Assembly (NCBI GenBank): GCA_030149205.1
Contig: JASBSB010000001.1
Span: 134,357-198,356 of the forward strand
DNA length: 64,000 nucleotides
Direction: 5' to 3'
DNA from: Candidatus Heimdallarchaeota archaeon
GTDB taxonomy: Archaea; Asgardarchaeota; Heimdallarchaeia; Heimdallarchaeales; Kariarchaeaceae
Shown: positions 1-52,680 of the stretch, in pieces
Numbering within the stretch: the stretch's first letter is position 1
Layout: each line of letters begins with the position of its first letter
Notes under the pieces: model-generated
What the model saw: the letters and a program-made list of their open reading frames with translations, nothing else
Databases searched by the model: none
Told to the model about the DNA's origin: nothing
Made by a program: the position numbers and the translations under genes

Positions 1-114
1 TCAATAGTAGATTCTTATCAACAAAAAGCTGCGAAATTACCACTCCCTAAAATTCTGCTCAAGTTAATCAGTTTACTGATAGAGGGAGTACAAGCTAAGA
101 TAAAGATTCTATAA
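1..114 (+). CDS. 3' end of an ORF entering from upstream of the window (unknown product)
   Basis: Frame 1 is open from base 1 to TAA at 112-114 (...KLPLPKILLKLISLLIEGVQAKIKIL*). Only 37 codons are visible and no motif is recognised. Confidence 0.2.
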   Translation, partial: SIVDSYQQKAAKLPLPKILLKLISLLIEGVQAKIKIL

Positions 115-552
115 ATTATAATTGTAAAATCATATTTGCTCTAATGTCGATTTTTGATTTTAAATTTGTTCATGAAAGGTATTGTCCATTGTAACCAGAA
201 CATCCCAATGAATTTGGGATTAAAATGAAAGAAATAGTTATTGATCGTAAAAAGAGAAGAGAAGAGTTGAAAACCAATATGGGTAGTTATCTAATTTAGT
301 GGTTTAGGTAGTTTACTTTACTAAATTAATACAATATTACAGAAGATTACAAAGATTAGATGTTTTAATTGCAAATATCATAAAAAACATTTCATCTTAG
401 TAAATTTTTTAGTTTGTACTAAAGCAGAGTATTATTTCACAAAAAACAATCTAAGTTTGTTAGAACAGAAGATAAACAACCATTTTAAGGAAAAATATAT
501 GCAAAAAGAAATTTAAGTTCGGGTTAATTCTTTTCAATGACCTAATATAATT

Positions 553-1386
553 TCAAGTGTCAAACTCTAATAAATCTATAAAGTCACACAATTTACAAAA
601 TTGACATACCTTAGATGTGAAATCTTGTTCAGGTAACTTTTTTATATTATTTAATTGTTGTGATTTTTCGTATAAATTAGAAATCTCTTGCAATAATCCC
701 CCAATCGTTTTCTGGTCAATTTTTTGAATTTGATCAAATTTTGGTTTACTATACCAAAGTTCAAGATTTATTTGCTGGTCTGGAAAAGAACTGTATAATA
801 TTTCACCATAAATTTTTATTTGATTCTCATCTTCTAGTTTTGGAGTACCCGTTTTGTATTCAATTATTCGTAATCCACCTGTTTCAGAAAATGCTACCAA
901 GTCAATCTTACCACGTATTTGAAAATTGTGGTTAATTCTATTGATAACAGTAAATTCATCTTGAATTACAAGTGATGTTATCTCATTATTATTAATTGTA
1001 ACCAAACTTTCTGCCATAAGAGCAAGATTATGAAGTTGACTTGTAATTATATCAAAACTATTTGAAAATTCTTGGCGATGGTATTTCCATGGACCTGTAT
1101 TATTCATCCATATTTTTTTTATTGAATCTAATTCAATTTCCATTGATAATAATATTGCATCCTTTATATTCTTACTTTTACGGTGATAAAAAAATTCAAC
1201 ATTACTAAAATTTCTTAGGAATACTCTCTGTAAAATTAAATGTAAAAAATTTCCCGCGTATACAAATTTGTTAGGTGTAAATGGTATTTTTATCTCCTGT
1301 TGAGCATATAATACCTGTAACATTGTTCTTCTTTTACAATTAAATTCATTTACACTTGTAACTCCTAATCTTATTGATTTATTCAT
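553..1386 (-). CDS. Cas4-like PD-(D/E)xK nuclease with predicted 4-Cys (Fe-S) cluster; last gene of the Argonaute operon
   Basis: Motif order matches the Cas4/AddB family. N-terminal Cys (SVNEFNCKRR), GNFLH, GKIDLV...RIIEYKTG (D...ExK core), QIKIY (QxxxY) and C-terminal CQFCKLC. The ATG overlaps the upstream gene's stop by 8 nt (1379-1386). Confidence 0.8.
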   Translation of the reverse strand: MNKSIRLGVTSVNEFNCKRRTMLQVLYAQQEIKIPFTPNKFVYAGNFLHLILQRVFLRNFSNVEFFYHRKSKNIKDAILLSMEIELDSIKKIWMNNTGPWKYHRQEFSNSFDIITSQLHNLALMAESLVTINNNEITSLVIQDEFTVINRINHNFQIRGKIDLVAFSETGGLRIIEYKTGTPKLEDENQIKIYGEILYSSFPDQQINLELWYSKPKFDQIQKIDQKTIGGLLQEISNLYEKSQQLNNIKKLPEQDFTSKVCQFCKLCDFIDLLEFDT

Positions 1387-3148
1387 TTAATGTCCTCCTA
1401 TTTTCCAATAAAAATTCTGAAGAATAGTGCATAGCTAATCCAAGGATAAATGGAAATTTCGGTTTTGATAAACTGTATGGGTTTATGAAGGTTTGATAAA
1501 ATACATCTTGAAGTATTTCTTGGATATCATGCAATCCTTTGATTTTTTCAATAAATAATGGTTTGGGAATACCTTCAAATAAATCATTAGGATATCCATT
1601 TGTCATAATTAATGACTTGTTATCATTAATACTAACTGATAAGCCATCAATTGCTTTAGAAGTATTTTCGATCTGTCCATAAAGGATTGAGTGTGATGAA
1701 TTAACTAAAACTAAACAAAAATTATAATGGGAAATTTTATCAATTAAAGGTAATAACTGTCTGTCTGAAATTTGAATTAAGAAGTGGTCTGAATCACTAA
1801 AATTAATCAATTTTTGTAAGAAATCATTAATTTTAACTTTTTCATCGATATTTTTGTCTCTATCATTATAAAAAATATCATGTGAAATGTTAATATTTCC
1901 CTTATTAGAACTAACACCTGATAATATCATCCATTCTCCTGCATAATATGGTGTTATATGAAGAGCGATTATATTCTGATGATACTTCATTGATACATTT
2001 TGATATAATTTTCGAGTGTATCTAAATCTAATATTCAACCAAATTAGTTTTACAATTTTTCCCCAATCATCTTCTAATATTGTTGAAAATTTAATGATTT
2101 TATTTGGAATTACAATTTTTTCTTTAGTTTTATTGTATACATATCCTGAACCCTTTATTCTATCGTCGATACATATTATAGCTGCATCTGCCTCAAATTT
2201 ATGAAGCTTGGAGACATAATAGCTTTGAATTGTAATATTTAATCCTGTAACTTCTGCAAAATATGAAATAAAATTCTGAATCTTAATGGGGGTATTATCT
2301 GTCACAGATTTATCAATTAAAAATAATATATTGCTAATAAATGGATCAAATGAAATGTTATCCTCTAAAATATCTACTAATGGAGTAGTGTTTAAAGTTT
2401 CAATAGTGTTTGAATTGATTTTTATCGACGGACTATTTATTAAATCCCCTTTCAGATTCTCAATAACAGATAATCTTACATTTCCGATTTGATTTGTATT
2501 TATTACTTTGATTATTTTAAGGAATCTTTGTTCCACTGATTCAAAATTTCGATGTAATTGTAATACTTCTTTTTCTATTACACCAGGTATTAATTTATTA
2601 GATGTTAAGTTAAATGAATTTTCAGATATTTCATGTCTGGGATCATAAAAAACCATAACCTTATCATCTCGCATCTCATGGCATTCAAACCTTTCAGCTT
2701 GAAAAATCGAATACGTGAATGTTTCATTAAACTGTTCAACAGTTTTTTCTACGATAGGATTTATTCTTTGACTAGCTACTCCTTTAGATTTTCCAATAAA
2801 TGACAGTACCTCACTGGGTCTATAATAACCTTTGTTTGAAAATGTAATATATAAGGCTGTCAATACGAATATGTCAAGATTTTGTATTTCTTTCTTTTCA
2901 TTAATCTCTGTAGTACAGATTGAAACAGGGATTGTAGCAATCTCCAAATGTGAAGGTGGTTTTTGTGCGAAAAGGTAATATGAATCCTTTACATATATAA
3001 TTGTAAATGGAACATCTGATAAAAAATCACCATTTTTTAATGCAAAGGTCAGAAAGCTAAATTCATAGTTGTACTGCATGGAAACTTTGTACATTTTTAA
3101 TACAGCTGTATCAATTTGTGCTATCCAACCAAGTATTTTGCATATCAT
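1379..3148 (-). CDS. Second, highly diverged Argonaute-like protein (MID-PIWI-like C-terminal half; N-terminal ~300 aa unassigned)
   Basis: By eye, aa ~325-592 follow the MID->PIWI motif order. YVYNKTKEKIVIPNKII is MID-like; KLIWLNIRFRY sits at the aKlGG helix position; HFLIQISDRQL at the hRDG strand position. GIPKPLFIEKI is GtprP-like and the C-terminal KPKFPFILGLAMHYS sits at the lPxPxxYA position. The ATG at 3148-3146 overlaps the pAgo TGA at 3147-3145 (ATGA). The track's GTG start at 3157 is the alternative. Confidence 0.55.
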   Translation of the reverse strand: MICKILGWIAQIDTAVLKMYKVSMQYNYEFSFLTFALKNGDFLSDVPFTIIYVKDSYYLFAQKPPSHLEIATIPVSICTTEINEKKEIQNLDIFVLTALYITFSNKGYYRPSEVLSFIGKSKGVASQRINPIVEKTVEQFNETFTYSIFQAERFECHEMRDDKVMVFYDPRHEISENSFNLTSNKLIPGVIEKEVLQLHRNFESVEQRFLKIIKVINTNQIGNVRLSVIENLKGDLINSPSIKINSNTIETLNTTPLVDILEDNISFDPFISNILFLIDKSVTDNTPIKIQNFISYFAEVTGLNITIQSYYVSKLHKFEADAAIICIDDRIKGSGYVYNKTKEKIVIPNKIIKFSTILEDDWGKIVKLIWLNIRFRYTRKLYQNVSMKYHQNIIALHITPYYAGEWMILSGVSSNKGNINISHDIFYNDRDKNIDEKVKINDFLQKLINFSDSDHFLIQISDRQLLPLIDKISHYNFCLVLVNSSHSILYGQIENTSKAIDGLSVSINDNKSLIMTNGYPNDLFEGIPKPLFIEKIKGLHDIQEILQDVFYQTFINPYSLSKPKFPFILGLAMHYSSEFLLENRRTLNE

Positions 3149-5346
3149 ATAAACCACGGCTTTTTAAAATGGAAATTCGCCATATCTTTAGGAATTTTGC
3201 CCATACCTCTACTTGATGAATGAATTGGAACTGGGAGCTTAGTTTCAATTCTATCCCATCCAGAATAACAATGGCATAAATCAAAAATCTCATAAAGAAG
3301 TTTTTCAAATCTCTCCTCATCACATTTAATATTTCTTAATACAATTGGATTTTGAGTCCCAACATTTCCTTGTGTTGAAATTAAACCAACTTCAGTCTTA
3401 GATATCCAATAAAAAGTCCCAATATGTGGCCGAAATATTCTATTTTTTTCATTCTTTGAATAAATACGAAGTGGAGACGAAGAAATTACCTCAACAATTG
3501 AATGTTTTAAATTAAGAATATTAAGGCTATGTTCAATATCTTTTAATTCTCTATCATAAAATTTTCCATTCTTTATTAAAACTACTTCATCATTATTTTT
3601 AGTGAGTAACTTAAAAGCACTTTCAAAATTTTGTTGACGATTTTCGACGTTATCAGAAATGTAGTATCCTCCACTAAATCTACCCGAATTATAATATGAA
3701 TTTAGTAACCCCCGATATTTAGTTGCATCTAGTGAGATGTTTTGAGATTGCAAACCAATATATTTTACAAAACCATTTTCATTAACATTCAGTAACCATG
3801 AATGTAGACCTAACTTTGCAATTATACCCAAAAATATATTCCGAAAATACCCATTTTGTCTTGATTCAATTTTATCCTTCAGAACATTAAAATTAATTCC
3901 CTGATGAGGATATTCATTTTTTATTAATTCACCAGATACTAATTCTTTGAATTCACTATCTACACTATCATTATCAGAATGAACCACTATGATACAATTG
4001 TTGTTATTTACAAATTTATCCATATATTCTGATAAGTCTCCCTTTTTTTCGAGAAGTTTTATTTCATCAAACTCAATTTCTGTACTAAGAAATTGTTGAA
4101 GAATGATTATTTCTTTTGTTTCTTTTAGAAATGGCTTTTTTATTAATCCTAATTGATATTCATTATACTCTCGATATAATAAAATCGATATTTTTAACTT
4201 TTCGGGACCCTTATCAAATATCCCATATTTTTGAATTTCTAATGCTGGGTAATCAGTCCTATGTGAATTACCAATAATGTAATTATTCAAATCTAATAGT
4301 CCAGAGTTACATGAGTTCCAAGATTGAAAGTTTCTAATTGGATTTAGAGTTATTGAACCCACGGTTAAATTACCTATAAAACGCATATAATTCTGTGATC
4401 GTTTAAATCTAATCGGAGGGTCAGGCCTAATTTGTTTCATCAGGGCACCTCTATCATGATAATCCAAATGTGAAAATGTTGGTAATTCTCGAATTCTTTC
4501 TAAAGGGTATGAATAATACTCATCATTATCATTTTTATAGAATGATAACGCAATAGGTGGTTCATCTTGTATAAATTCACCAAGCACGGGTGCTCTAGGA
4601 CAAATGAATTTTTGTTTGTGAAACTCAATTATATCTAAATTATCAATTATTACCTCTGAAGGTTTCTTATTTACAATTTTTTTCAATTTCACAGTCTTCC
4701 CAGTTCCAGCATATCTACAGTTTGAGAAAGGATCCTGTTTTTCTGGACATTGAATAATTGGACAAGTATCTACATAATAATTTTTCGGATTTATTTCTAT
4801 ACTAGAATATGAAAGTTTCTCTCTCAATGATACGGATGAATGAAATTTATATTTGAGATCAACTATTACTCCAACTTCACCATTTTTAAGCAAAATTGGA
4901 GCATATTGAAATCCTGGGAAAACATCAATTTTTCCAAAACCCTCGATGGTCTCAGGGCTAGAAACCTCAAATATTGAATTGTAAGTTTCTTGTATCTTCC
5001 ATAATTTATTACTATGTCGTAAATTGACAGCAATAGCATCTCCAATAATTCTTTTCAATAGATCTAAATCATCATCATTTTGGGCTGAAACTAATCTACT
5101 AGTAGGAGGAAATAAATTTACTGCCAAATCTTTTTCGAAATCATCTTCAAGTAATTCGGTTGAAATTATCTTATCTCCAAATTGAATTATAATTTTACGT
5201 CGATTATCTGGAACTTTCCTAAGATTAAGTAATACATCACCAAGTTTTCGAAAGTTTATTTCTTCTTTTTTCCTATATTCAAAGACTGTAACTTTATCTT
5301 TGAATGGTGTTTTTTCAAATTTTAAAATATTAGTTATTATTTCCAT
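3145..5346 (-). CDS. Long prokaryotic Argonaute (N-PAZ-MID-PIWI), predicted catalytically inactive
   Basis: N-terminal TNILKF; PAZ-like block DVFPGFQYAPILLKNGEVGVIVDLKYKF. The MID/PIWI junction reads YPHQGINFNVLKD...FRNIFLGIIAKLGLHSWLL. The PIWI C-terminus reads GTQNPIVL...ETKLPVPIHSS. The hRDG strand reads IKNG (nt 3565-3576), so the third catalytic Asp is Asn. Confidence 0.85.
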   Translation of the reverse strand: MEIITNILKFEKTPFKDKVTVFEYRKKEEINFRKLGDVLLNLRKVPDNRRKIIIQFGDKIISTELLEDDFEKDLAVNLFPPTSRLVSAQNDDDLDLLKRIIGDAIAVNLRHSNKLWKIQETYNSIFEVSSPETIEGFGKIDVFPGFQYAPILLKNGEVGVIVDLKYKFHSSVSLREKLSYSSIEINPKNYYVDTCPIIQCPEKQDPFSNCRYAGTGKTVKLKKIVNKKPSEVIIDNLDIIEFHKQKFICPRAPVLGEFIQDEPPIALSFYKNDNDEYYSYPLERIRELPTFSHLDYHDRGALMKQIRPDPPIRFKRSQNYMRFIGNLTVGSITLNPIRNFQSWNSCNSGLLDLNNYIIGNSHRTDYPALEIQKYGIFDKGPEKLKISILLYREYNEYQLGLIKKPFLKETKEIIILQQFLSTEIEFDEIKLLEKKGDLSEYMDKFVNNNNCIIVVHSDNDSVDSEFKELVSGELIKNEYPHQGINFNVLKDKIESRQNGYFRNIFLGIIAKLGLHSWLLNVNENGFVKYIGLQSQNISLDATKYRGLLNSYYNSGRFSGGYYISDNVENRQQNFESAFKLLTKNNDEVVLIKNGKFYDRELKDIEHSLNILNLKHSIVEVISSSPLRIYSKNEKNRIFRPHIGTFYWISKTEVGLISTQGNVGTQNPIVLRNIKCDEERFEKLLYEIFDLCHCYSGWDRIETKLPVPIHSSSRGMGKIPKDMANFHFKKPWFI

Positions 5347-5348
5347 AT

Positions 5349-6035
5349 TTATCTCTCTTTGTTTTTAAGTAACTCAAATGAACTTATCACCGCAAGGTCT
5401 GTGTTAACCGTTTTTGTTAGTATTTTCTTACAAGCTGAATGCATTATGAAAAATCCTGTACCTAACGCAGTTTTCATTAACTCGTTTTTTGCGGATTGCA
5501 ATAAAATATCATTAACTATTATTTCAGGATGAACTGATGTTGAAAAATATACTTGGATTGTAAATGAACTCGTATCATCCAAAAACAAAAAAGAATTTAT
5601 TCCATCTTTTTTCCAATTACACTTCAGTGAAAAAAGATCTTCAATTCTTGAATTAAACCCGTCTAATCTATTAAATTCTTCGCTAATTTCTTTGATAGGT
5701 AGTATAATTGAAGATTTTAACAAATAATTCCCCATAACTCTCAGGTGCCAATTAGAATTAAATTTATCTACGTCTAATACTTGTATAGTTTGATTGGATT
5801 GATACAATCCTGTATCTTCTTCATAAGAAAGCAGATTATCTTTAGTTAATTGGCTAAGTATCATTTCAACTTCTACATTTGGTATATGATCAAAATATAG
5901 ATTACTTCTCCCAGAACTCATCCAAATATGTTTCACTATATTTGATTTTTTTGCACTACCATAATCTCGCAGGAAATCAAGAATTAATTTTTTAATTGCT
6001 TTCTCCATTGAATCTTTAGGTTTCATATCAATCAC
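5349..6035 (-). CDS. Winged-helix (wHTH)-like N-terminal domain protein with uncharacterised C-terminal domain; Argonaute-operon gene 2
   Basis: The N-terminal ~75 aa (EKAIKKLILDFLRDYGSAKKSNIVKHI...ILSQLTKDNLLSYEEDTGLY) has a wHTH-like helix/wing pattern. The GTG at 6035 overlaps the upstream TGA (GTGA); an ATG at 6026 is the alternative. Only 2 nt separate its stop from the pAgo ATG. Confidence 0.5.
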   Translation of the reverse strand: MIDMKPKDSMEKAIKKLILDFLRDYGSAKKSNIVKHIWMSSGRSNLYFDHIPNVEVEMILSQLTKDNLLSYEEDTGLYQSNQTIQVLDVDKFNSNWHLRVMGNYLLKSSIILPIKEISEEFNRLDGFNSRIEDLFSLKCNWKKDGINSFLFLDDTSSFTIQVYFSTSVHPEIIVNDILLQSAKNELMKTALGTGFFIMHSACKKILTKTVNTDLAVISSFELLKNKER

Positions 6036-7072
6036 CTGACTATCTCCTTAATCTTTGACTTTAGTTCTTCAGAATTATCTACAATTACAACATTCTTAAA
6101 ATTGTAGCGTATTTCATCATAATATTGATTAGAATTGTTTAAAATAATAAAATGGGTAATATCAATAAACGAAGTAAAAGCAAAATTAATTTCATCTACC
6201 TCTTCAGAAGGTAAATGCATATCTACAATCCATAATCCAATTTTTAGGTTATTCAATTCAATGTAAATGGGAATTGTTATACTCTCATTCTGACTATTTG
6301 TAATCTTTATTTCCTTACGGATAAAAATTGGATTGAATTCTTGAATTACATTGAGGAAGCTTTGACCAATTTTCTCCTGTAAATACTTGAAATCATCACT
6401 GAAAGCCGGAATTCCAGATATTTCCTCAAAATCTTTTGCTGTGTATTTTGTTCTCATTTGAGAGCTTGATTTTGTAATTATTTGTTCTATTATATCTTGA
6501 AATATTTGTTTAGGATTACGAATTAGAATATTATATTTTGATAGCTCTTCAAGACATTTACTCTTAATATTATCGAATGGACTTGATGGATGATTGGGGG
6601 CAAAATAATTCCAAACAAATTCTATTTTTTTGAATACTTCAATTTTTTTCTGATCTGTGAATTTTCCTTTGAAAAGAGAATTTATTCTACCTTTATCAGC
6701 ATTTGAAATTTCTAAATTGTTCTGAAGGTTTTGTTGAATTTGCAGTAGTTCAGTAATTTCTGCATTCCAACCCGATTGAGTTGTAAATCGAAATTTAATT
6801 TCTTTTCCAGATAAATTTTTTTCATCTTCCTGTATGAACTTTGTTAAAATTGGTATCAAACTTGATTTATTCCAGACACTATGTTCTTTTTTCTTTACCT
6901 GTTCAAATATAAAGTACCCAGTATATTCTATGTTAATATCTTCTAATTCATCATCCTTTGATTCAAATTCAATTGATAAAATCTGATCTCCTTTAATGAA
7001 TTCAATGACTCTTAGTACTCCAACCATATTTTGGTAATTAATACCATAGTTTGTATCAATTCCACTTGGCAA
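6032..7072 (-). CDS. DUF4297 / Cap4-type dsDNA-endonuclease-like (PD-(D/E)xK fold) N-terminal domain protein; first gene of the Argonaute operon
   Basis: The N-terminus (YGINYQNMVGVLRVIEF...IEFESKDDELEDINIEY...FEQVKKK) matches the G-x-x-YQ ... E..D.D ... QxK pattern of DUF4297 nuclease domains. The C-terminal ~220 aa are unassigned. A TTG start at 7072 is needed to include the YQ motif. Confidence 0.6.
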   Translation of the reverse strand: MPSGIDTNYGINYQNMVGVLRVIEFIKGDQILSIEFESKDDELEDINIEYTGYFIFEQVKKKEHSVWNKSSLIPILTKFIQEDEKNLSGKEIKFRFTTQSGWNAEITELLQIQQNLQNNLEISNADKGRINSLFKGKFTDQKKIEVFKKIEFVWNYFAPNHPSSPFDNIKSKCLEELSKYNILIRNPKQIFQDIIEQIITKSSSQMRTKYTAKDFEEISGIPAFSDDFKYLQEKIGQSFLNVIQEFNPIFIRKEIKITNSQNESITIPIYIELNNLKIGLWIVDMHLPSEEVDEINFAFTSFIDITHFIILNNSNQYYDEIRYNFKNVVIVDNSEELKSKIKEIVR

Positions 7073-7091
7073 TATTTTAAATCTAGTTTTC

Positions 7092-7102
7092 TTTATAATA
7101 AT
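7092..7102 (-). promoter_or_regulatory. TATA-box-like element upstream of the Argonaute operon
   Basis: The minus strand reads attattataaa about 25 nt upstream of the TTG start at 7072, a spacing compatible with a leaderless or short-leader archaeal transcript. TATA-like strings are common in this AT-rich DNA. Confidence 0.3.
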
Positions 7103-7454
7103 TCAGAGATATTGTAATAATCAAAATGAAAGTTTTAAAAATTTAAATATACAATATGTGATATCAAAAAAATTTTATTGCAAAGACTTAAAATAAATGA
7201 GAACTCGAAGCTGGATAAAGACCTATAACCGTGATTTCCTTGAAATATCTCGGATATAATCAAGAAAATAAATTAGTAAATCTAAATCTTGATTGAAATA
7301 TTCTTCGTCTACTAATTATTCTTATTATATTGTTATCTTATAAGAGTTGGAAGTACACAGATATTCGACTTGCTAAGTCAGTATACAATATATATTCAAC
7401 CAGTATCTTTCAACTATGACTACCAATTCCAAAAAAAAAATGAAATTGAATGAA

Positions 7455-8597
7455 TTAATCCAGGTGTTTATTGTTTTTCTTAATATGCTGCAATGTATCT
7501 TCATTGTGAGCTGCCAAATACTCAAAAGAATTGTCATACATAGTTTGATTTAATCTATGAATAATGTCACTTTTTACGAAAATACTATATTCAACAGGAG
7601 TTTTGTTATCAATTGTAGATAAATTATTTGTTATGTATTTCATAAAATTTTCCAGATTTAACAATCCTATCGCAATTGTGGGATTAATTGGTATGTAATA
7701 TTCTAACATAACTGATACTCCATTTACTATTAACTCTGCTATAATCAATGGATTGTCTGAAGTAATTAATTCTACAGGGTGGTCTTGAGGATTTAGTCCA
7801 GATAGATTAATTATGATGATCGGCCTGAGTTCAGTATGTTTTAGTGGTTTATCAACTGTTTCATCAGGCAATTTTTGTAAAACTTCTCTGATTTTATTTT
7901 CAATTTCGATTTGACTATCTTTATGATCTAAAGATTTCTTTATTCCGATACTAATATTTTTACTTATTAAGGATATCATACCTTGTAAGTCGTTTTTTAA
8001 AAAATACCCCTGTGCTTTTTGTAAAAACACCTCGTCATATTTAATATTACTTTGATATAGAATCTCCTGTGTTTCAGTGCTAATAAAACTAAAATCCAAT
8101 ATCTTACTAAATTTCATGTAATTTCTAAATGAAGGTGTTCTAAACGTTAGATGATTAATAAAATCACATAAAATTTCGAAATTTGATTGCAAATGCATAG
8201 CATCTATGAAAGTCTCCGCAAATTTTTTTATATCTAATGATTTTTTGAATATGTTATCTCTATTACTAGGGTTGTAAATTTTTATTTTCTCAGTTTGAAA
8301 ATTTAATTTTTCTAATCCAGTAAAGAACTTAGCGACTTTATCCTCAGCTTCACTCATCAAATCGTCAATCAGTTCCTCTAAAAACCTTGGAGAATAAAAA
8401 CTTTGATTAATCTTTTTTTTGTCAATATCCCCAGTCTTTTTGTTCAACCTAAATACTCTTTTCTTTTTGTTATCTTTTTCAAAATCCTCCTCAATAACAA
8501 AATTTCGTAGAAACCACTGAGGAATATAATGTTGTTTTCTGCCTGACATGAACATAACTGTGGAATAATTGTATATTATAGTATTTGAACGAGACAT
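7455..8597 (-). CDS. DUF4238-like protein (function unknown)
   Basis: The N-terminal motif GRKQHYIPQWFLRNF matches the H-Y-[IV]-P-Q-x-[FY]-L-x-x-F signature of DUF4238. The rest is unassigned. It lies in the same low-GC block as the Argonaute operon. Confidence 0.55.
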   Translation of the reverse strand: MSRSNTIIYNYSTVMFMSGRKQHYIPQWFLRNFVIEEDFEKDNKKKRVFRLNKKTGDIDKKKINQSFYSPRFLEELIDDLMSEAEDKVAKFFTGLEKLNFQTEKIKIYNPSNRDNIFKKSLDIKKFAETFIDAMHLQSNFEILCDFINHLTFRTPSFRNYMKFSKILDFSFISTETQEILYQSNIKYDEVFLQKAQGYFLKNDLQGMISLISKNISIGIKKSLDHKDSQIEIENKIREVLQKLPDETVDKPLKHTELRPIIIINLSGLNPQDHPVELITSDNPLIIAELIVNGVSVMLEYYIPINPTIAIGLLNLENFMKYITNNLSTIDNKTPVEYSIFVKSDIIHRLNQTMYDNSFEYLAAHNEDTLQHIKKNNKHLD

Positions 8598-8704
8598 TAC
8601 AAAATTAATCGATAATTAGATCATTTTCTGAAATTTCAAAGGTTTGTGTTAACAAAAATAATATTAGTCAATATTTCAGACTTGTGTTTCAATCAACAAC
8701 TAAT

Positions 8705-9319
8705 CTACGAATCGAAACCTTCAATTTCTTCAAGATCGTCATAGGTCTGTCTAACTGCTTGATGAACTTGATCTTCGGTCTTTGCACCAGTACACACAAG
8801 ATTCCCACTTTGGAAGAGCAACAATACTGTTTTAGGTTCTTTTAATCGATAGATAAGTCCAGGAAACTGCTCAGGTTCATACATTGATTGTTCTAACCAC
8901 ATGTTTGCGGCTTCAAGGTTAATCACCCTATTGTTGAAATTCCCAGAGGCAACAATATTTTGGACGATAATTTCAGGAGTCTCTTCAATGGTTGTGCCCA
9001 CAGTTCTTAGGATATCAATCATCTGATAAACACCTTGATGAACCATTTCCTCAGATTTTGCACCCGTTATAACCAGTTTACCACTTGAAAACACAAGGGA
9101 TGAGATTTTAGGCTTTTTAGTTTTTAAGATCAGACCAGGAAACTGTTCTGGGTTATAGCTTACTTCTAATTCATCATCATCAATTAACTGTTGAAAGATA
9201 CTGACTAAATCTATGTTTGTGAACAGGTTAACTGAAGCTACACAGTTTTGGATTATAATTTTGAAATCTAATCCGTCGTCTTTGTTTTTTTCTCTTGAGG
9301 GAAGTGTTTCTTGACTCAT
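8705..9319 (-). CDS. tbp: TATA-box binding protein
   Basis: Two direct repeats are present, each with QNxVAS...EQFPGLI...SGKLVITGAK / SGNLVCTGAK. Confidence 0.95.
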   Translation of the reverse strand: MSQETLPSREKNKDDGLDFKIIIQNCVASVNLFTNIDLVSIFQQLIDDDELEVSYNPEQFPGLILKTKKPKISSLVFSSGKLVITGAKSEEMVHQGVYQMIDILRTVGTTIEETPEIIVQNIVASGNFNNRVINLEAANMWLEQSMYEPEQFPGLIYRLKEPKTVLLLFQSGNLVCTGAKTEDQVHQAVRQTYDDLEEIEGFDS

Positions 9320-9461
9320 CTTGATTCAAAATGATTAAGAACTTGCTCTTTTATAAGGCTTAGTAAAAATATCTTTTATTTTGTATGTTCTGATACATAA
9401 AAACACACGCTTGAATTGTAAAGAGAATGCATTTTTCTACAATTTTCCTACGACACAGTAA

Positions 9462-10007
9462 CTATTTTCTTACAAGCTTTTGGTTATCTTGAATCTTCCC
9501 AGCAATTTGCTCAATTTTTAATTCTAGAACCTTGATGATTTTTGTATTGTCGAACTCTTCAAGTGTTTCCCCACATTTTGGACAGATGAAATCATACTCC
9601 ATAGCTTCGTTGAACGTCAAACGGTAACACTCCTTCTTTCCACATGTGAAAAACATGTTTTCCTTCTCATGTTGAAGCCGTTCCATAAGTTTCCATTGTA
9701 TTGCCCTCTGTTTCTTAATAACGACAGAGTTTATGTTTTCAGTCAGTAGTTTCCAAAAATAAATATACCAACCTGTGTTTTTATCCCTGATCCTACGAAA
9801 ACTTGCTATCTCCAAATCATGGAGTTTATACAAGGATTTTCTAACCTCATCAAGTTTAATGTTTAGCTCATCTGCTATAAATTCATCTGTAACCTCTTCA
9901 TCTTGATCAATAAGTAGAATGGTTACTTTTCGGATCTCAGGTCCGGCTACATCCTCCACCATATCTAATAATGTTTGTCTTTCTTGCTCGTTAACTACCA
10001 AATCCAC
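9462..10007 (-). CDS. tfe: Transcription factor E (TFE alpha, TFIIE-alpha homologue)
   Basis: N-terminal wHTH (DEFIADELNIKLDEVRKSLYKLHD) followed by a Zn-ribbon (FFTCGKKEC...FICPKCGETL). Confidence 0.85.
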   Translation of the reverse strand: MDLVVNEQERQTLLDMVEDVAGPEIRKVTILLIDQDEEVTDEFIADELNIKLDEVRKSLYKLHDLEIASFRRIRDKNTGWYIYFWKLLTENINSVVIKKQRAIQWKLMERLQHEKENMFFTCGKKECYRLTFNEAMEYDFICPKCGETLEEFDNTKIIKVLELKIEQIAGKIQDNQKLVRK

Positions 10008-10175
10008 AACCTTTATCGAATTGATTACCAGAGGAATACCCTAATTAACATTAATTTTTGGTATTAAAACCCATATGATGTTGTACTAATCAATTTCACA
10101 TAAATTAGCATCAAGCTGAATAATAACTTTTTATTTGCAAAACTAACAAAGGTTTTAGATTTACCTAACAAATAT

Positions 10176-10766
10176 GTGGTTGTGTTAAAGCTAATTCATC
10201 TAAACATTATGAGGATGGTGGATGGAAAACCTCAGGGAGTGCCAATTTGGAAGACCCCACTAGATCCTGAAAAACACCCAAATTTGTCAGATGATACAAT
10301 CACAACGACGCTAGTGAGTCTTTCAAAGCGATTTGTACGACCATCCTTAGAGGGAAAAAATTATAATTTTGTAAAACTTTCCTTTAATAACATCATTTTT
10401 GATATTTACCTCCCTTCCAGTGGAAAAGATCAGTTTGCTTTAATCACTATCTTTCAATCTGAACCCCCAATAAAGACAACAGAAAAAGAAAGAGATGAAT
10501 TGATTTTAACCTTAGTCTCAAAGATTAAGAAGATAGAAGAATTTAGAAAGGTATTCACAAAAAGTTTTGGGGATCAAAGTTTAGAGATTGAATTCAATTC
10601 CACTCTGTACAAAAAAATCCTCAGTGTGGTCTTTGATGAGGTCGAAAAGTTCAACAACATTAAACTGCATAAACTGAAAGAGGAGATTGAAAAGAAAAGG
10701 AGGATACAGGAGGAGAAAATAGAAAAATTCATGTCAGATACTGAAAATACAGAGGATAATGAATAA
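10176..10766 (+). CDS. Hypothetical protein; possible Roadblock/longin-like alpha/beta domain plus C-terminal charged coiled coil
   Basis: The ORF starts with GTG; ATG codons at M12/M14 are alternatives. A beta-beta-alpha-beta-beta-beta-alpha-like hydrophobic pattern is seen by eye only. The C-terminus is EEIEKKRRIQEEKIEK. Confidence 0.4.
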   Translation: MVVLKLIHLNIMRMVDGKPQGVPIWKTPLDPEKHPNLSDDTITTTLVSLSKRFVRPSLEGKNYNFVKLSFNNIIFDIYLPSSGKDQFALITIFQSEPPIKTTEKERDELILTLVSKIKKIEEFRKVFTKSFGDQSLEIEFNSTLYKKILSVVFDEVEKFNNIKLHKLKEEIEKKRRIQEEKIEKFMSDTENTEDNE

Positions 10767-10829
10767 ATCATCACTCTAAATTACCTCTGTGATGAAAATA
10801 TTTAATATAAAAGTGAATTATGTTAAGTA

Positions 10830-11672
10830 TTGAATCTTTTTGATAAGTATTCCCCGAATAAAAAGAATACAGAAATCAGGGTGGGGACTGTAGAAGAGAA
10901 TTTTGTTTTAGAAGAACAACCATCAAGGGAAATTGTTTTTAAGTCAGCCAGTGAAATATTAGAGGACTCAAAGCTCTCCCAACCAATAAGTACTGGGGTC
11001 TCGGGTCTAAATCAGCTTTTGCATGGAGGAATAGAGCGAGGTAGTATTACGGAAGTGTTTGGCTCTCCCACGGTTGGCAAATCTCAATTTGCCTTTCAAA
11101 TAACCAAGAATAATTCTCTTGGGAAGTATAAACCAATTAGCATTTTTATTGATACCGAAGGTACTTTTAAACCTCAAAGAATTGTACAAATGTTGAAACA
11201 TCAAAAAGCAAGTCAATCATCAACCAAAGATGTTCTTGACAATATTATGGTGTTCTCAGTGAGTAATTATAAGGATCAAATAAAGGTGGTTCAAAGCATT
11301 TTTCAAATGCCAAATCTGGAGAATGTTGGGCTAATTGTAATTGATTCTCTAACAAACCTTTTCAGAGCTCAATTGAGCTCAAAAAGCCAAATTATCAGAA
11401 GACAGCAACTTATTAATCTTCAACTGTCGAAATTAAGAAGTTTAGCACAGAGAAACAAAATCGCAGTTCTTGTTACAAATCAGGTCGGAATGGATTACCA
11501 AGCCCAACGAAATATTCCAGTTGGTGGAAATATTCTTGCACATGGGGTGACCCATAGGCTACAGATAGAGAGAATGGACGGTGGAAATAAACGATTGTTT
11601 AAAATCGTTAGCTCTCCTTTCATACCAGAAGGTGTAATTGAATTACGTTTGACTGAACAAGGGTTAATCTGA
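10830..11672 (+). CDS. RadA/Rad51-family recombinase paralogue lacking the N-terminal HhH domain (RadB-like)
   Basis: Walker A GSPTVGKSQ, IDTEGTFKPQRIVQ, Walker B LIVIDSLTNLFRA, RRQQL...VLVTNQV and VGGNILAHGVTHRL. TTG start. Confidence 0.8.
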   Translation: MNLFDKYSPNKKNTEIRVGTVEENFVLEEQPSREIVFKSASEILEDSKLSQPISTGVSGLNQLLHGGIERGSITEVFGSPTVGKSQFAFQITKNNSLGKYKPISIFIDTEGTFKPQRIVQMLKHQKASQSSTKDVLDNIMVFSVSNYKDQIKVVQSIFQMPNLENVGLIVIDSLTNLFRAQLSSKSQIIRRQQLINLQLSKLRSLAQRNKIAVLVTNQVGMDYQAQRNIPVGGNILAHGVTHRLQIERMDGGNKRLFKIVSSPFIPEGVIELRLTEQGLI

Positions 11673-12020
11673 ATTCTCAAAGAAATCTGTAATACTCTTT
11701 TGACTCATCCTTTTTTCTAATCTCTCTAGCTTCATATCTTTGAATTCTTGAAGCAGTGAATTTGCTTCGTCATCCAATGCAAAAGCGAGAACAATTTGAT
11801 CTTTTAGAACATCCACATCAGCTAACTCCTCAATAAAATTGGTAAAAAAAAGATTGTTGTTATCGGTCAACTTGATAACACCATCCTTTGTGGCTTGTCT
11901 TAGTTTGATTGTTGCTTGAAGGAGTTCACCTAACTCTTCAATTAGTTTGTCTATCTGATGATTGATCCCAAATGTCTTGACTGCTTTTAAACTGATCTCC
12001 CGTCGTTTGTTAGCATCCAT
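11664..12020 (-). CDS. MazG-like nucleotide pyrophosphohydrolase domain protein
   Basis: Paired EExxE/D helices are present: IEELGELLQA and IEELADVDVL. Confidence 0.65.
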   Translation of the reverse strand: MDANKRREISLKAVKTFGINHQIDKLIEELGELLQATIKLRQATKDGVIKLTDNNNLFFTNFIEELADVDVLKDQIVLAFALDDEANSLLQEFKDMKLERLEKRMSQKSITDFFENSD

Positions 12021-12143
12021 CTCTATTCATTTAGTATTTCCTTAAATTATAAAGTCATCTATGAAATCAAGGGAACATTAATTCAGTAACCAATTAATTT
12101 CTAATAATTTTATTCATCGTTTTATGAAACCCTTTATACTGAT

Positions 12144-12548
12144 TTATTCATATCTCCAGCTAATTACAGTATTATTAACAGGAACCATCTGGTCGACTGC
12201 TAAAGAACCCCGAACATTATTGAGGTAGTATATCCAAAATGCATTTGATCGATTAATGTTGTTAAACACTCCATCAATGGAGGTAACAAAATATCCCAAA
12301 TTAGGATACACCTTAATTGTAACGTTGTTATCAAGGATTGTCAAGTTATAAACTGTAAGTGTGGTGTTGAGGAGATAAGATTTTTGGATATCCGGTTTTA
12401 TTCCATTAAACTTGACTTCTAGAGAATAATAGATTAAACCAACCGAAACACCTCCTTTTTGTTGATTTTGATTAAAGAGATACAAAGCGCCAGTTAATGT
12501 AATTAAGATAAATAACAACATCACCAAGAACAATAGAGTTCTTTTCAT
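12144..12548 (-). CDS. DUF4430-domain membrane-anchored protein (commonly next to ECF/cobalamin-type transporters)
   Basis: N-terminal TM helix. The C-terminus (GYFVTSIDGV...NAFWIYYLNNVRGSLAVDQ...VISWRYE) matches the DUF4430 pattern. ATGA overlap with the upstream gene. Confidence 0.6.
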   Translation of the reverse strand: MKRTLLFLVMLLFILITLTGALYLFNQNQQKGGVSVGLIYYSLEVKFNGIKPDIQKSYLLNTTLTVYNLTILDNNVTIKVYPNLGYFVTSIDGVFNNINRSNAFWIYYLNNVRGSLAVDQMVPVNNTVISWRYE

Positions 12549-13174
12549 TTATTGACCCCACGTGATTGAAGTAAATAATCATAGTTTATCTGTACGACGG
12601 GTAACACTGTTCTTTCTATATAGGGCAATGTGGCAAATAGATAGCTGTTTGCAACTACATGAATAATGGTAAAATTTATTCCAAATATAAATGTGGTCAG
12701 ATAGACCGAGATAAATTCAAGAGGAGTTGTAATGAAGAACAAGCTTGTTCCTAAGGTCACCACCATATCCCAAATAAGTGTAAAGAAGGCACCAATTATC
12801 AGAAATTCATAAGCCTTCTCGACTTTGAACTTATAACTTAAATGACCAGCAATCAAAAATAACAACCAGCCTATAACTTTAAGTGGGAATACAAGCAACC
12901 CTAACCCAAAAGTAAGTGAGGCTAATACTTCCCAGGAAAATATTATAACCAAACTCGTCACCAAGGCAAATTTTGTCCTAAATAAATACCCAATGAAAAA
13001 GATACTAAAAGAAATTATCTCCACATTTGGTATAGTGATGAGTAACCAGTTAATTCCAAGAACTGCTGCTCCAAGTTCAATCATTAATGCTTTGGTTTGC
13101 AGCTTCTCATCTGTGGACTCGAAATTTGAGATAATTTCATACGTATTTTCCTCTGTCTTAGTATGTGAATTCAA
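12545..13174 (-). CDS. Polytopic membrane protein, ECF-transporter S-component-like
   Basis: About 6 hydrophobic helices. It lies divergent to an ECF A-A-T module and is coupled to the DUF4430 gene. The assignment rests on context. Confidence 0.45.
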   Translation of the reverse strand: MNSHTKTEENTYEIISNFESTDEKLQTKALMIELGAAVLGINWLLITIPNVEIISFSIFFIGYLFRTKFALVTSLVIIFSWEVLASLTFGLGLLVFPLKVIGWLLFLIAGHLSYKFKVEKAYEFLIIGAFFTLIWDMVVTLGTSLFFITTPLEFISVYLTTFIFGINFTIIHVVANSYLFATLPYIERTVLPVVQINYDYLLQSRGVNK

Positions 13175-13223
13175 TTGATTTCTTTACCTAGTTTAATTAA
13201 TAGGATTTTTAACCTATAACTTA

Positions 13224-14531
13224 GTGACAGGTTCAACTGAACCTAGATTAACAACAGAAGACCTAGGAATTTCGTATACTCACCCATCAGAGGTTAAAGT
13301 TTTCGAGCACGTAGATTTGACCATTACTCAGGGGAAGATTGTACTAATCACCGGAAAAAATGGATCGGGAAAGTCTACGCTAATTTCAACTTTACTTCAA
13401 GCACATGCTAAAGGCTCAATCAAAAGCTCAGGAAGAATAAAAATTCTAAAAGGTGAAACGTTAAACTATTTATCACAAAAACCGGCATTCCACCTTCTAA
13501 CGCAGCGGGTAGATGAAGAGCTAGCCAGCCCCTTAGGATTTAAAAGAGTCCCAAGGGAAGAAAGGAGACATAGAGTTATTGATGTAATAAATCAATTTAA
13601 TTTCAAACCGACTCTCGAAAGGAATCCATTAAAACTGTCTTCGGGTGAACAACAGCTTCTGTTATTGATGGTGGGAAAAATTTCAGATTCTGATATTTTT
13701 CTTTTAGACGAACCATTTTCAATGCTTGATAAAACAAACGAAGAGTCAGTCATCAGTGCGTTGAACGTCTTAAAGGGACTCGGGAAGAGTATAGTTGTCG
13801 TATCACATCGACCACCTTTAAATTTGCTAAAATATATTGACAACATATTTTTGATTGAAGATTTTAGATTAAAACAAACTTCAATTCCCACATTCAAAAA
13901 TCACTTAGAACATTTGCAGGAGTTTGTAAATAGCTTACTGTCCAAATCAACTCAAAAGGAAAGGAATTTAGCCATTTATTGGGACAGTATGATATCTGTA
14001 GGAAGAGCTGAGATGTTATTTCAATGCCCTCCCATGAATATTAACTCTGGAGAGATCGTATGTTTTAGTGGATCAAACGGTTCAGGTAAAACTACATTTT
14101 TGTTAACCCTACATGGAAGCATTTCACCATTGGAAGGGTCGGTAACCAAAAAAGCAAAGACAAAGTTTGTACCTGCTGATCCACTACTTTTCTTTATGGA
14201 TGGAGAAATAAAGTCCTTGCTTAAAGAATACAAAATTGATAAAATGGATATTCCTAACAAATTCAAATCTGTGGAGACAATATTCCAACTTTCAGAGGGA
14301 CAACAAAAACTATTTGGCTTGTTCTTGGTATTTTTTAGTGACACAGAGATTCTTTTATTAGATGAGCCTACGTTTGCATTAGATAGTGAAAACATTAAAC
14401 TCCTATTAAAATGGTTAAGTGAGACTGAAAAGACTGTAATTATCGCATCGCATGAAGTTTTATTGTTTGGAAAACTACCTAATAAGTCGTACACAATCAC
14501 TTCCAAAAAGGCAATTAAGATGAGGAGATAA
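13224..14531 (+). CDS. ECF/ABC transporter ATPase, fused double ATP-binding cassette (EcfA1-EcfA2-like)
   Basis: Two cassettes are present: GKNGSGKST / LSSGEQQLL / FLLDEP and GSNGSGKTT / LSEGQQKLF / LLLDEPT. GTG start. Confidence 0.85.
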   Translation: MTGSTEPRLTTEDLGISYTHPSEVKVFEHVDLTITQGKIVLITGKNGSGKSTLISTLLQAHAKGSIKSSGRIKILKGETLNYLSQKPAFHLLTQRVDEELASPLGFKRVPREERRHRVIDVINQFNFKPTLERNPLKLSSGEQQLLLLMVGKISDSDIFLLDEPFSMLDKTNEESVISALNVLKGLGKSIVVVSHRPPLNLLKYIDNIFLIEDFRLKQTSIPTFKNHLEHLQEFVNSLLSKSTQKERNLAIYWDSMISVGRAEMLFQCPPMNINSGEIVCFSGSNGSGKTTFLLTLHGSISPLEGSVTKKAKTKFVPADPLLFFMDGEIKSLLKEYKIDKMDIPNKFKSVETIFQLSEGQQKLFGLFLVFFSDTEILLLDEPTFALDSENIKLLLKWLSETEKTVIIASHEVLLFGKLPNKSYTITSKKAIKMRR

Positions 14532-14536
14532 CTTAA

Positions 14537-15217
14537 ATGGAAGTTGAATTTCGAATAAAATTGCTGCTCGTACTGCTCCCCTTTGGATTAACATTTCTAA
14601 ACGTACTTCCCTCTCTACATTTTCTGCTTGTATTTTCTCTCGGACTTGCTCTCGTTAGTCTAGGTTATAGAAAAGTTATTTCTCTATTGTGGTCACTCAA
14701 ATGGATTATTTTGTTGGCCTCGTTGATTTTAATCCTAATTTCCCCCAATTTTTTAACTTTAAATTTCCTTGAGAAATTTTTGATAATGATTGGATTATTG
14801 GCTTTTTTAACAACTCAACTCAACTCTAGTGAGCTTTATGACCTGATGATTAAATCAAAGTTCCCTCATACATTTGCTTGGACAGTAACTCAAATTCAGA
14901 GAAATATGGAGTTTTTTGTTGATGAATTTCAAATTCTCCTTGAGATTCATAAAAGTAATCTAGATCAGGGATTCTTGTTACAAAGAATTAAAGCCCGTGT
15001 TAAATTTTCCACGTCGCTTTTAATCCTGGCATATGTTAGAGCTATACAAAGAGCAAAAATTCTTCCAATAACCTTACGTTCAAGAGGATGGAAGGGGGCA
15101 CACGAAAATTTATTTTTAAACATCACTCCAAAGCCTACAAATTGGCTAACAGTGCTGTTGATCTTTTCTGTCGAATTAATCGCAATTATTGGTACATATA
15201 CATTCACACTTACATAA
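14537..15217 (+). CDS. ecfT: ECF transporter transmembrane (T) component, CbiQ/EcfT family
   Basis: Multi-TM protein immediately after the ATPase. It has coupling-helix Arg motifs (AYVRAIQRAKILPITLRSRGW). Confidence 0.7.
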   Translation: MEVEFRIKLLLVLLPFGLTFLNVLPSLHFLLVFSLGLALVSLGYRKVISLLWSLKWIILLASLILILISPNFLTLNFLEKFLIMIGLLAFLTTQLNSSELYDLMIKSKFPHTFAWTVTQIQRNMEFFVDEFQILLEIHKSNLDQGFLLQRIKARVKFSTSLLILAYVRAIQRAKILPITLRSRGWKGAHENLFLNITPKPTNWLTVLLIFSVELIAIIGTYTFTLT

Positions 15218-15248
15218 AATATAGATAGAAGAAGATGGAATCTAAGTT

Positions 15249-16481
15249 ATGGCTGAAGCCCTTGATCAATACGAGATTGACCTGAGAATTTATGATGGTG
15301 TGGAGGGAAACTTCCTCTGGTACCAAAATTATTTTCAAACTCAGAGGGAAGATTATTTTAACAAGGGAATTGAAGGCTCGGTAACATCTAAGGTCATATC
15401 ATATTTTTTTGGTGGAATGGAGAACTTGGTAAAGGCTGATTCTTATTTTTGGAAGGGTGATTTCAAATCAGCTGTAAATGAATATACAAAGTCTCTCCGT
15501 GAGTTTAGTCTTTTTAAATCTTCAAGAGGAGCGAGCTTTAAACTTGATCTGTTAACACTTAAAAATATTCATTGGGTTAAAGGTATGATAGCTCTAAGCA
15601 GAGCCCTTCAAATGCCAGGTGACAAAAAATCCTTTGATTACTTCTCCGAAGCCCTGTTAGAATTTAACAATGAAGTTAATCAATCCACTGAAATGAAAGA
15701 AGAAATTAGTATGCTGGTGTCATTTTCGAGAGCTTCATTAACAGAAGCATTACTCTGGCAAGCGCGTGGAAACCAGGTAGAGATTGATAACAGCGCCGAA
15801 GCAAAAAGAAGATTGATGAAGGCAAGATCCGCAGTCCGACAGGCACAATACATTAACAAGTTAGTGACTGAATTTACCGAAAGTATAGAAGAAAATCTAG
15901 ATAACTTAACTCGAAAGCGGATTTTGGTGAAAGCAGATAAACTTGCGGTCCAAGGAACCATTGCGTCAGAAAAATCCGATTATCTTTCAGCAAAACAACT
16001 CTTTATTCAATCCAATCTTTTTTATAATAGAGCTGCTCAATTAGCCGAATCTGCGGGAAATAGAAGGATATTACTTTCAATGTCTAAGGTTATGGAAGCA
16101 TCAATTTTTGAATGTGACGCCAATGAGATGTATCGAAAAAATAACAATCTCAAAGAGGCACAGCTCAAATTTGATGAGGGCTCTTTGATAATAGATAAAG
16201 CAATCGCTTTATTGGGGTCATTGGGTTCATCGGAACTTAGAGACTCGTTCACTGCCCAAAGAGATTACTATTCAGCAATGGCTCTCTATTGTAAAGCAAC
16301 ACAAAGCTTTGATGAAGAAATTTATGATGAAGCTAAGGAGTTGTACCTGACTGCAAAGGACAAATTCCTCTCAGCAATTCAATTAGGTAAGAAATCTCAG
16401 AACACCACTATTGTGGAATTAACAGGTCAAGCACTTGCAGAAGTAGAAAGTTATTTACAACTGTGTGATACATTTCTTTAG
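15249..16481 (+). CDS. Hypothetical all-alpha (TPR-like?) protein
   Basis: Long ORF with amphipathic-helix periodicity. No catalytic or binding motif recognised. Confidence 0.45.
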   Translation: MAEALDQYEIDLRIYDGVEGNFLWYQNYFQTQREDYFNKGIEGSVTSKVISYFFGGMENLVKADSYFWKGDFKSAVNEYTKSLREFSLFKSSRGASFKLDLLTLKNIHWVKGMIALSRALQMPGDKKSFDYFSEALLEFNNEVNQSTEMKEEISMLVSFSRASLTEALLWQARGNQVEIDNSAEAKRRLMKARSAVRQAQYINKLVTEFTESIEENLDNLTRKRILVKADKLAVQGTIASEKSDYLSAKQLFIQSNLFYNRAAQLAESAGNRRILLSMSKVMEASIFECDANEMYRKNNNLKEAQLKFDEGSLIIDKAIALLGSLGSSELRDSFTAQRDYYSAMALYCKATQSFDEEIYDEAKELYLTAKDKFLSAIQLGKKSQNTTIVELTGQALAEVESYLQLCDTFL

Positions 16482-28378: not shown

Positions 28379-28481
28379 ACATAAAAATATATTGAAATCA
28401 ATAATAACTCTAAAAAGAGCTAATCACCTTAGTTTATTGCACGTGTCCCACAGCAAACACAGATTAAATATTCGTATCATC

Positions 28482-52645: not shown

Positions 52646-52680
52646 AATAATAATAAGATTTACTCAAATAAAACTCTTAT

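Follow-up and report, generated by a model that had tools for sequence, protein, structure and literature searches.

A Cap4-type nuclease and an orphan acidic protein encoded in a five-gene Argonaute operon of a heimdallarchaeal genome

Inactive Argonautes are known to leave the killing to effectors of the SIR2, TIR, RecB-like, HNH or membrane kind, and the locus described here raises the question of whether a nuclease of yet another family may be placed under the control of such a protein. The locus lies within a stretch of 64,000 nucleotides from Candidatus Heimdallarchaeota archaeon (assembly GCA_030149205.1, contig JASBSB010000001.1, positions 134,357 to 198,356), which as a whole is called the window below. 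A first-pass annotation, made from the sequence alone, had placed a DUF4297 nuclease domain and a winged helix-turn-helix (wHTH) protein at positions 5349-7072, upstream of an Argonaute gene, and had suggested that the two might be the effector/licensing half of a larger system. These positions hold exactly two open reading frames (ORFs), here called g1 and g2, both on the minus strand, and they are followed by three further genes, g3, g4 and g5. The reading favoured here, with moderate confidence, is that g1 and g2 encode integral subunits of an Asgard-type archaeal five-gene Argonaute defence operon that would act by abortive infection. By analogy, 'effector/licensing half' seems a reasonable inference for the pair.

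Residues 3-202 of g1 match the Pfam profile PF14130 (Cap4_nuclease, the family formerly named DUF4297) at positions 2-200 of its 200, with an E-value of 9.7e-10 and a score of 39.4 bits compared to a gathering cut-off of 26.2. The domain assigned in the first-pass annotation is thus recovered over the whole profile. The motifs that had been pointed out there, namely G10-I-N-Y-Q14, the acidic strand (E44-D45) and Q58-V59-K60, are all present and are invariant across the g1 family. In the Cap4 domain of HamA the residues D45, Q58 and K60 coordinate the metal, and alanine substitutions abolish defence (PMC11914072). A MAFFT alignment with Escherichia coli HamA/AbpA places D45, Q58, V59 and K60 of g1 in the same columns as D45, Q58, V59 and K60 of HamA, and these residues do not vary among the four g1 lineages, one of which is just 29% identical. 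The predicted catalytic codons are found at 6940-6938 (D45), 6901-6899 (Q58) and 6895-6893 (K60). A tblastn comparison of g1 with the abpA locus was significant for the first 71 residues (1.7e-5). The PADLOC model of LmuA matches aa 3-136, which is the nuclease part only (3.1e-4), while that of HamA matches aa 4-213 with positions 12-227 of its 539 (4.4e-4).

An AlphaFold2 (AF2) model of g1, built from three family members, has a mean predicted local distance difference test (pLDDT) score of 71.5, with values of 70-89 for the first approximately 155 residues. The nuclease domain displays a restriction-endonuclease-like fold closest to those of solved Cap4-type domains, and the predicted catalytic residues are placed on the adjacent strands E43-50 and E53-60. 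A nuclease match within residues 1-110 and a complete set of active-site residues, the two features with which the earlier proposal stood or fell, are both present. As judged from its sequence, g1 is a bona fide Cap4/DUF4297 nuclease domain protein with a predicted intact active site, and it looks catalytically competent. The C-terminal part of about 140 residues has no match in Pfam or among PDB sequences. It is modelled with a pLDDT of about 50-65, has an isoelectric point (pI) of 4.7-5.2, and only a few of its residues are the same in the four lineages, which have no catalytic pattern in common here. It is proposed to serve docking or oligomerisation.

The five genes are found in the order g1-g2-g3-g4-g5 on one strand (Table 1). 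The GTG start of g2 lies on the TGA stop of g1, and the resulting 4-nt overlap (GTGA), which had been noticed earlier, is confirmed by reading the junction. There is a 2-nt gap between the g2 stop and the g3 ATG, while g3 and g4 overlap by 13 nt, and g4 and g5 by 8 nt. The only sizeable untranslated gap of the unit is the region 5' of g1, the remaining junctions being overlaps or gaps of at most 2 nt. One gene caller lets g2 begin at an ATG three codons further downstream, which gives a protein of 225 aa. The GTG is preferred because the homologues begin with MID or MIN and keep the 4-nt overlap, as is seen in the loci L001 and L004.

Related loci were recovered from contigs on which relatives of g1 or g2 are encoded. 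L001, from an archaeal metagenome-assembled genome (MAG), contains the five genes in the same order with identities of 50-64%. The most divergent complete locus, L006, occupies positions 3475-10106 of a contig that measures 44.9 kb and belongs to a Candidatus Heimdallarchaeaceae MAG (JGI 3300033141). It has the same five-gene order and equally tight junctions, but its flanking genes are unrelated, and the identities are 29% for g1 (300 aa), 26% for g2, 39% for g3, 37% for g4 and 36% for g5. Three short contigs (L002, L004, and L009) display the partial orders to be expected. Wherever the flank is long enough, g1 and g5 both lie collinear with g3, so that the link between the pair and the Argonaute genes, as originally described, extends to all related loci. 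This strict collinearity across such divergence and in different neighbourhoods is strong evidence that the five genes constitute one functional unit. The g1 homologue of L006 scores 23.1 bits, which is under the gathering score of PF14130, and public records carry no annotation for it; at this locus the nuclease would escape automated annotation.

The family is small. Word-indexed searches with g1, g2, and g3 gave one to two relatives each, a scan of genome contigs with g1 gave no contig beyond one already known, and metagenome scans using highly degenerate patterns from the Argonaute alignment gave no further loci among the matches listed. Two viral scans gave no locus, leaving a virus-borne status without support. 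An exhaustive profile hidden Markov model search of 1.84 billion cluster representatives found the g2 family in three clusters, all of them from this operon, and no g2 relative was recovered in any other context. The family comprises about six lineages. The sole match to the g2 profile outside the operon family is a protein of 1561 aa (P0011) with a marginal E-value of 9.2e-4. Five short stretches of it align with aa 166-219 of g2; it is probably a repetitive protein and the match spurious.

These distributions bear on the possibility that g1 and g2 make up an independent toxin-antitoxin-like or stand-alone nuclease module which merely adjoins an Argonaute-Cas4 system. A nuclease encoded together with a small acidic protein resembles the nuclease-immunity pairs, defence genes tend to cluster and a DUF4238 gene adjoins the operon. 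In addition, g3-g5 have changed more slowly than g1 and g2 (36-39% vs. 29% and 26% identity in L006). However, an independent module does not sit well with an identical order and a tight coupling in all lineages down to 26% identity and between different flanks, nor with the confinement of g2 to the operon among the representatives searched. The DUF4238 neighbour, unlike g1 and g2, is not conserved. Such a module is considered very improbable.

The second gene of the pair encodes an orphan. It has no match in Pfam, NCBIfam, PADLOC or the PDB sequences, and none of six family members, each scanned at E<=10, matched any HTH or wHTH family. The AF2 model is poor (pLDDT 48.7). Its N-terminal secondary structure consists of three helices followed by a beta hairpin, which corresponds to a winged-helix topology. 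Of what the first-pass annotation said about this protein, the wHTH N-domain can be kept only tentatively, given the missing sequence match, the poor model and the acidic character. The division into an N-domain and a second domain, estimated earlier at about 150 aa and here at about 140 aa, appears solely in the same model.

The N-domain is acidic in six of six lineages, with a net charge of -2 to -11 and a pI of 4.4-5.6, and helix 3, the recognition helix of such a fold, has an acidic or neutral character in each of them. DNA binding by this domain is disfavoured because it is acidic in every lineage, and g2 is unlikely to be a DNA binder. As a winged helix, the domain would more probably bind protein than read DNA. 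In the six-member alignment the C-terminal part of about 140 residues is better conserved, with D133, W141, G145, P170-E171, G194-F-F196 and K203 as invariant residues. Structural resemblances of g2 to Med18/20 and to IclR/GAF are not trusted; all Foldseek E-values were >0.01.

Alternatively, g2 could be a conventional wHTH repressor of the toxic operon, possibly IclR-like and with a second domain that binds a ligand, in which case it would be no structural subunit. This is regarded as improbable, given the acidic N-domain and putative recognition helix, the lack of any HTH family match even at the permissive threshold, and the Foldseek values mentioned above. The position of the gene in the middle of the operon, translationally coupled on both sides, and a C-domain that is far better conserved than the N-domain count against a repressor as well.

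The Argonaute that had been placed downstream of the pair is g3, which matches two PADLOC models of prokaryotic Argonautes (pAgos) with E-values of 1.2e-39 and 9.2e-29, and Clostridium perfringens Argonaute (CpAgo) in the PDB with 6e-13. The GLD motif of CpAgo corresponds to GLQ in g3 and to GMS in the L006 homologue, while the RDG motif corresponds to KNG and KHG, respectively. The catalytic positions 1 and 3 are thus occupied by Q and N in g3, and by S and H in L006. Having lost the first and third catalytic residues, g3 is predicted to be a catalytically dead Argonaute that is unable to slice.

A weaker PIWI similarity is found in the C-terminal part of g4, and it is concordant across three libraries: aa 508-575 match the PADLOC model PprPIWI (1.2e-5), a model name that was not traced in the literature, the L006 homologue matches the Pfam family Piwi (0.021), and g4 matches the short pAgo 8ifk_B in the PDB (0.0056). 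It is probable from these matches that g4 is a second, degenerate Argonaute-fold subunit. A profile-profile comparison (hhalign) of g3 with g4 was not significant, and g4 as a clear Argonaute paralogue remains unproven. The same is the case for g2 as an equivalent of APAZ or of the N-L1-L2 part of an Argonaute, since neither g2 vs. g3 nor g2 vs. g4 was significant; nor was g1 vs. g2. It can be observed that g4 is kept in all full-length loci, which suggests a sensor with two Argonaute folds, perhaps a heterodimer.

The last gene, g5, encodes a second nuclease. It matches Pfam PDDEXK_1 (5e-11), TIGR00372 cas4 (7e-5) and PADLOC Cas4c (2.3e-7), and weakly also PADLOC Aga_Cas4-like_Nuc (2.3e-4). 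The motif D162...E176-Y-K178 is intact in the translation, as are the cysteines C17 and C262-x2-C265-x2-C268. The operon would then hold two PD-(D/E)xK nucleases, g1 and g5, which belong to different families and are both apparently active. Owing to the presence of g5, the role of effector cannot be assigned to g1 by elimination.

The main rival explanation follows from this: the roles of the nucleases may be swapped, such that g1, possibly with g2, makes guides for g3 while g5 is the effector, or such that the Argonaute binds and blocks or marks its target without any suicide effector. The repressor and the independent module discussed above are minor rivals in comparison. Two nucleases with intact motifs share the operon, Cas4-like nucleases have long been known beside inactive pAgos (PMC6299218), as the weak match of g5 to Aga_Cas4-like_Nuc recalls, and co-encoded nucleases that supply pAgos with guides are documented (PMC11162769). 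On the other hand, Cap4-type domains are terminal effectors that degrade double-stranded DNA (dsDNA) non-specifically wherever they have been studied, that is in CBASS, Avs3, Hachiman I-B, Lamassu and DUF4297-HerA. Enzymes of the Cas4/AddB type are processors of DNA ends. Swapped roles are considered unlikely, though less so than the minor rivals.

According to the favoured reading, in which g1 is the effector, g3 would bind small guides, probably together with g4, and recognise the nucleic acid of an invader. Since g3 lacks catalytic residues, such a sensor would need an effector, and inactive pAgos are known to act through co-encoded nucleases (PMC6299218; PMC10620215; PMC13535254). Recognition would activate g1 with its intact D45/Q58/K60 site, most likely through release from sequestration and/or through oligomerisation via the C-terminal domain, and g1 would then degrade dsDNA non-specifically and cause abortive infection. 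Cap4-type nucleases carry a fused C-terminal coupling domain and are switched on by oligomerisation or release. Type II Lamassu has, between its effector and its sensor, a small orphan 'middle component' that sequesters LmuA until activation. A comparable part may be played by g2, which would be an adaptor or safety catch that ties g1 to the Argonaute sensor and keeps it silent, and no DNA-binding regulator. For g5, the processing of DNA ends is more likely, either for guide generation or as a helper.

Several points weigh against this reading. The contacts between g1, g2 and the Argonaute are inferred, and so is the defence role of the operon; at least one Asgard Argonaute operon, that of HrAgo2, goes together with genes of transposition and replication instead. 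As g5 is apparently active too, g1 could make guides and g5 be the effector. The model of g2 is poor, so that both its fold and its role are tentative. Finally, the about six lineages are all metagenomic, and the synteny rests on few independent observations.

A more specific version, which is put forward tentatively and with distinctly lower confidence, is that the operon encodes a hitherto undescribed Asgard-type heteromeric Argonaute machine in which g3 and g4 form the sensor, g2 is the adaptor or inhibitor, g1 the suicide DNase and g5 the guide supplier. If this is true, the machine would transfer to Argonautes the logic of effector, middle component and sensor known from Lamassu/ABC-3C systems, and g1 the first Argonaute-controlled Cap4 nuclease.

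Table 1. Positions in the window of the operon genes, their domains and adjoining features
Feature	Position	Strand	Remarks
g1	7072..6032	-	346 aa; TTG start at 7072; stop 6034-6032
g1 aa 1-205, predicted Cap4-type nuclease domain	6458..7072	-	Pfam match; HamA alignment
g1 aa 206-346, C-terminal domain, fold not assigned	6035..6457	-	Acidic, less conserved
g2	6035..5349	-	228 aa; GTG start; stop 5351-5349; operon-specific
g2 aa 1-88, possible winged-helix domain, acidic	5772..6035	-	
g2 aa 89-228, conserved alpha/beta domain, fold not assigned	5352..5771	-	Six-member alignment
g3, long-type prokaryotic Argonaute, degenerate catalytic tetrad	5346..3145	-	733 aa; PADLOC, PDB
g4, weak PIWI-like C-terminus	3157..1379	-	592 aa (589 aa counted from ATG)
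g5, Cas4-like PD-(D/E)xK nuclease, four cysteines	1386..553	-	277 aa
AT-rich intergenic region 5' of g1	7073..7454	-	382 bp; presumed operon promoter
DUF4238 gene	7455-8597	-	380 aa; Pfam 6.1e-15; 382 bp upstream of operon, in island
Low-GC island	~1-8670 (L003 ~8400-17400)		Far end cut by window start

The window is part of an archaeal chromosome. The genes just upstream encode TBP and TFE, and further on are found genes for the thermosome, class I LysRS, PAC2 and other housekeeping proteins. The operon itself lies inside an island of about 9 kb with a GC content of 26-30%, while the flanks have 33-38%. No convincing direct repeats flank the island, and scanning the whole window with Rfam at gathering thresholds gave no match; no tRNA or other RNA gene was found. 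The DUF4238 protein has no PADLOC match. In a P2 hotspot, a DUF4238 gene constitutes a single-gene system by which E. coli is protected against T7 (PMC9122126). The low-GC island and the adjoining DUF4238 gene both count in favour of a defence context. As a component of the system itself the DUF4238 protein was rejected, the gene not being conserved beside the operon in L001 or L006.

Elsewhere in the window, an unusual fusion is found in a 715-aa ORF at 28251-30398 (+), where a major facilitator superfamily transporter is joined to a PhoU_div/DUF47 domain at the C-terminus. At 51212-54189 (-), the gene for a CheR-type methyltransferase (477 aa) directly adjoins that for a LanC-like protein (502 aa). 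Four ORFs are without a Pfam match at E<=0.001; these are found at 35748-38036 (-, 762 aa), 58844-60520 (-, 558 aa), 15249-16481 (+, 410 aa) and 17311-18375 (-, 354 aa).

The nucleases listed for pAgo operons are SIR2, TIR, RecB2, DUF4365, Cas4, PLD and HNH, and DUF4297 is not among them (Ryazansky 2018; PMC6299218). In open-access full text, a scope that leaves out supplementary tables and subscription journals, DUF4297 and Argonaute, like Cap4 and pAgo, are mentioned only separately, and the five-gene operon is not described in two papers on Asgard defence and Argonautes. The remark in the first-pass annotation that DUF4297 is not a familiar Argonaute partner agrees with this literature, and the association is provisionally regarded as unreported. 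The operon is considered to represent an Argonaute system that is real, if rare, and associated with Asgard archaea, and in which both the effector family and the orphan subunit are new. Conceptually it is inside the established paradigm of an inactive Argonaute combined with a nuclease. A Cap4-type g1 would add the effector of CBASS, Lamassu, Hachiman, Avs and DUF4297-HerA to the list of pAgo effectors and, if the proposed function is true, the same plug-in nuclease would be wired to yet another sensor class. The operon is unusually complex in that it encodes two nucleases, two PIWI-like proteins and an orphan, and its hosts, Asgard-type archaea, are the lineage of greatest interest where the origin of RNA silencing in eukaryotes is concerned. 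The g2 protein is a small and testable candidate for a new nuclease-control module.

Other systems that use nucleases of the g1 type differ in their sensor. In CBASS Cap4, Lamassu LmuA, Hachiman I-B HamA, Avs3 and DUF4297-HerA the sensors are a SAVED domain, an SMC/ABC ATPase, a helicase, a STAND NTPase and HerA, respectively, while the sensor here would be an Argonaute. Neither g1, g2 nor the operon as a whole contains a SAVED, ABC-3C CTD or MC, DUF1837 or helicase domain according to Pfam and PADLOC. CBASS Cap4 was rejected as an assignment for g1, which has no SAVED match in an operon without a cyclase (CD-NTase) gene. Lamassu LmuA/ABC-3C was likewise rejected, as the LmuA match is confined to the nuclease part and the operon has no SMC-like gene. 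For Hachiman HamA type I-B, the match is confined to the N-terminal part of the model, and both DUF1837 and a helicase gene are missing.

Among Argonaute systems, the operon has the two hallmarks of those that combine an inactive pAgo with a nuclease, in that the Argonaute lacks the DEDX tetrad and a nuclease is conserved in the operon. It would share an inactive Argonaute sensor and a collateral effector with SPARDA, the short-pAgo/APAZ-nuclease systems and SiAgo-Aga1-Aga2, where the small partners (APAZ, Aga1) complete the Argonaute architecture. However, g3 is long (733 aa) and extends beyond MID-PIWI, the nuclease is not fused to APAZ, and g2 displays no detectable profile similarity to the N-L1-L2 part of g3 or g4. 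The combination of g3 and g5 reproduces the pairing known from pAgo and Cas4-like operons (Makarova 2009; og_56/og_60 of Ryazansky 2018), while the Cap4/DUF4297 nuclease, the g2 family and the second PIWI-like gene set the present operon apart from those descriptions.

The closest parallel is BPAN, a two-gene bacterial system consisting of a long-B pAgo and bAgaN (Song 2023, PMC10620215; Liu 2026, PMC13535254). In EcBPAN, an autoinhibited PD-(D/E)xK nuclease dimer is drawn into an 8:8 assembly once target DNA has been recognised under RNA guidance, and this assembly degrades DNA non-specifically (PMC13535254). The operon resembles BPAN in pairing a full-length dead Argonaute with a separate two-domain PD-(D/E)xK DNase. 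It was rejected as a member of BPAN, since nuclease family and domain order differ: bAgaN is RecB-like, with a D-EVK motif and a C-terminal nuclease domain (PMC10620215), while the domain in g1 is of the Cap4 type, has the motif D...QxK and is N-terminal. No Argonaute-associated PADLOC model matched g1 or g2. The present operon is further archaeal and has five genes, which add a small protein, a second PIWI-like protein and a Cas4-like nuclease. By analogy, BPAN nevertheless appears to be the best functional analogue of the operon.

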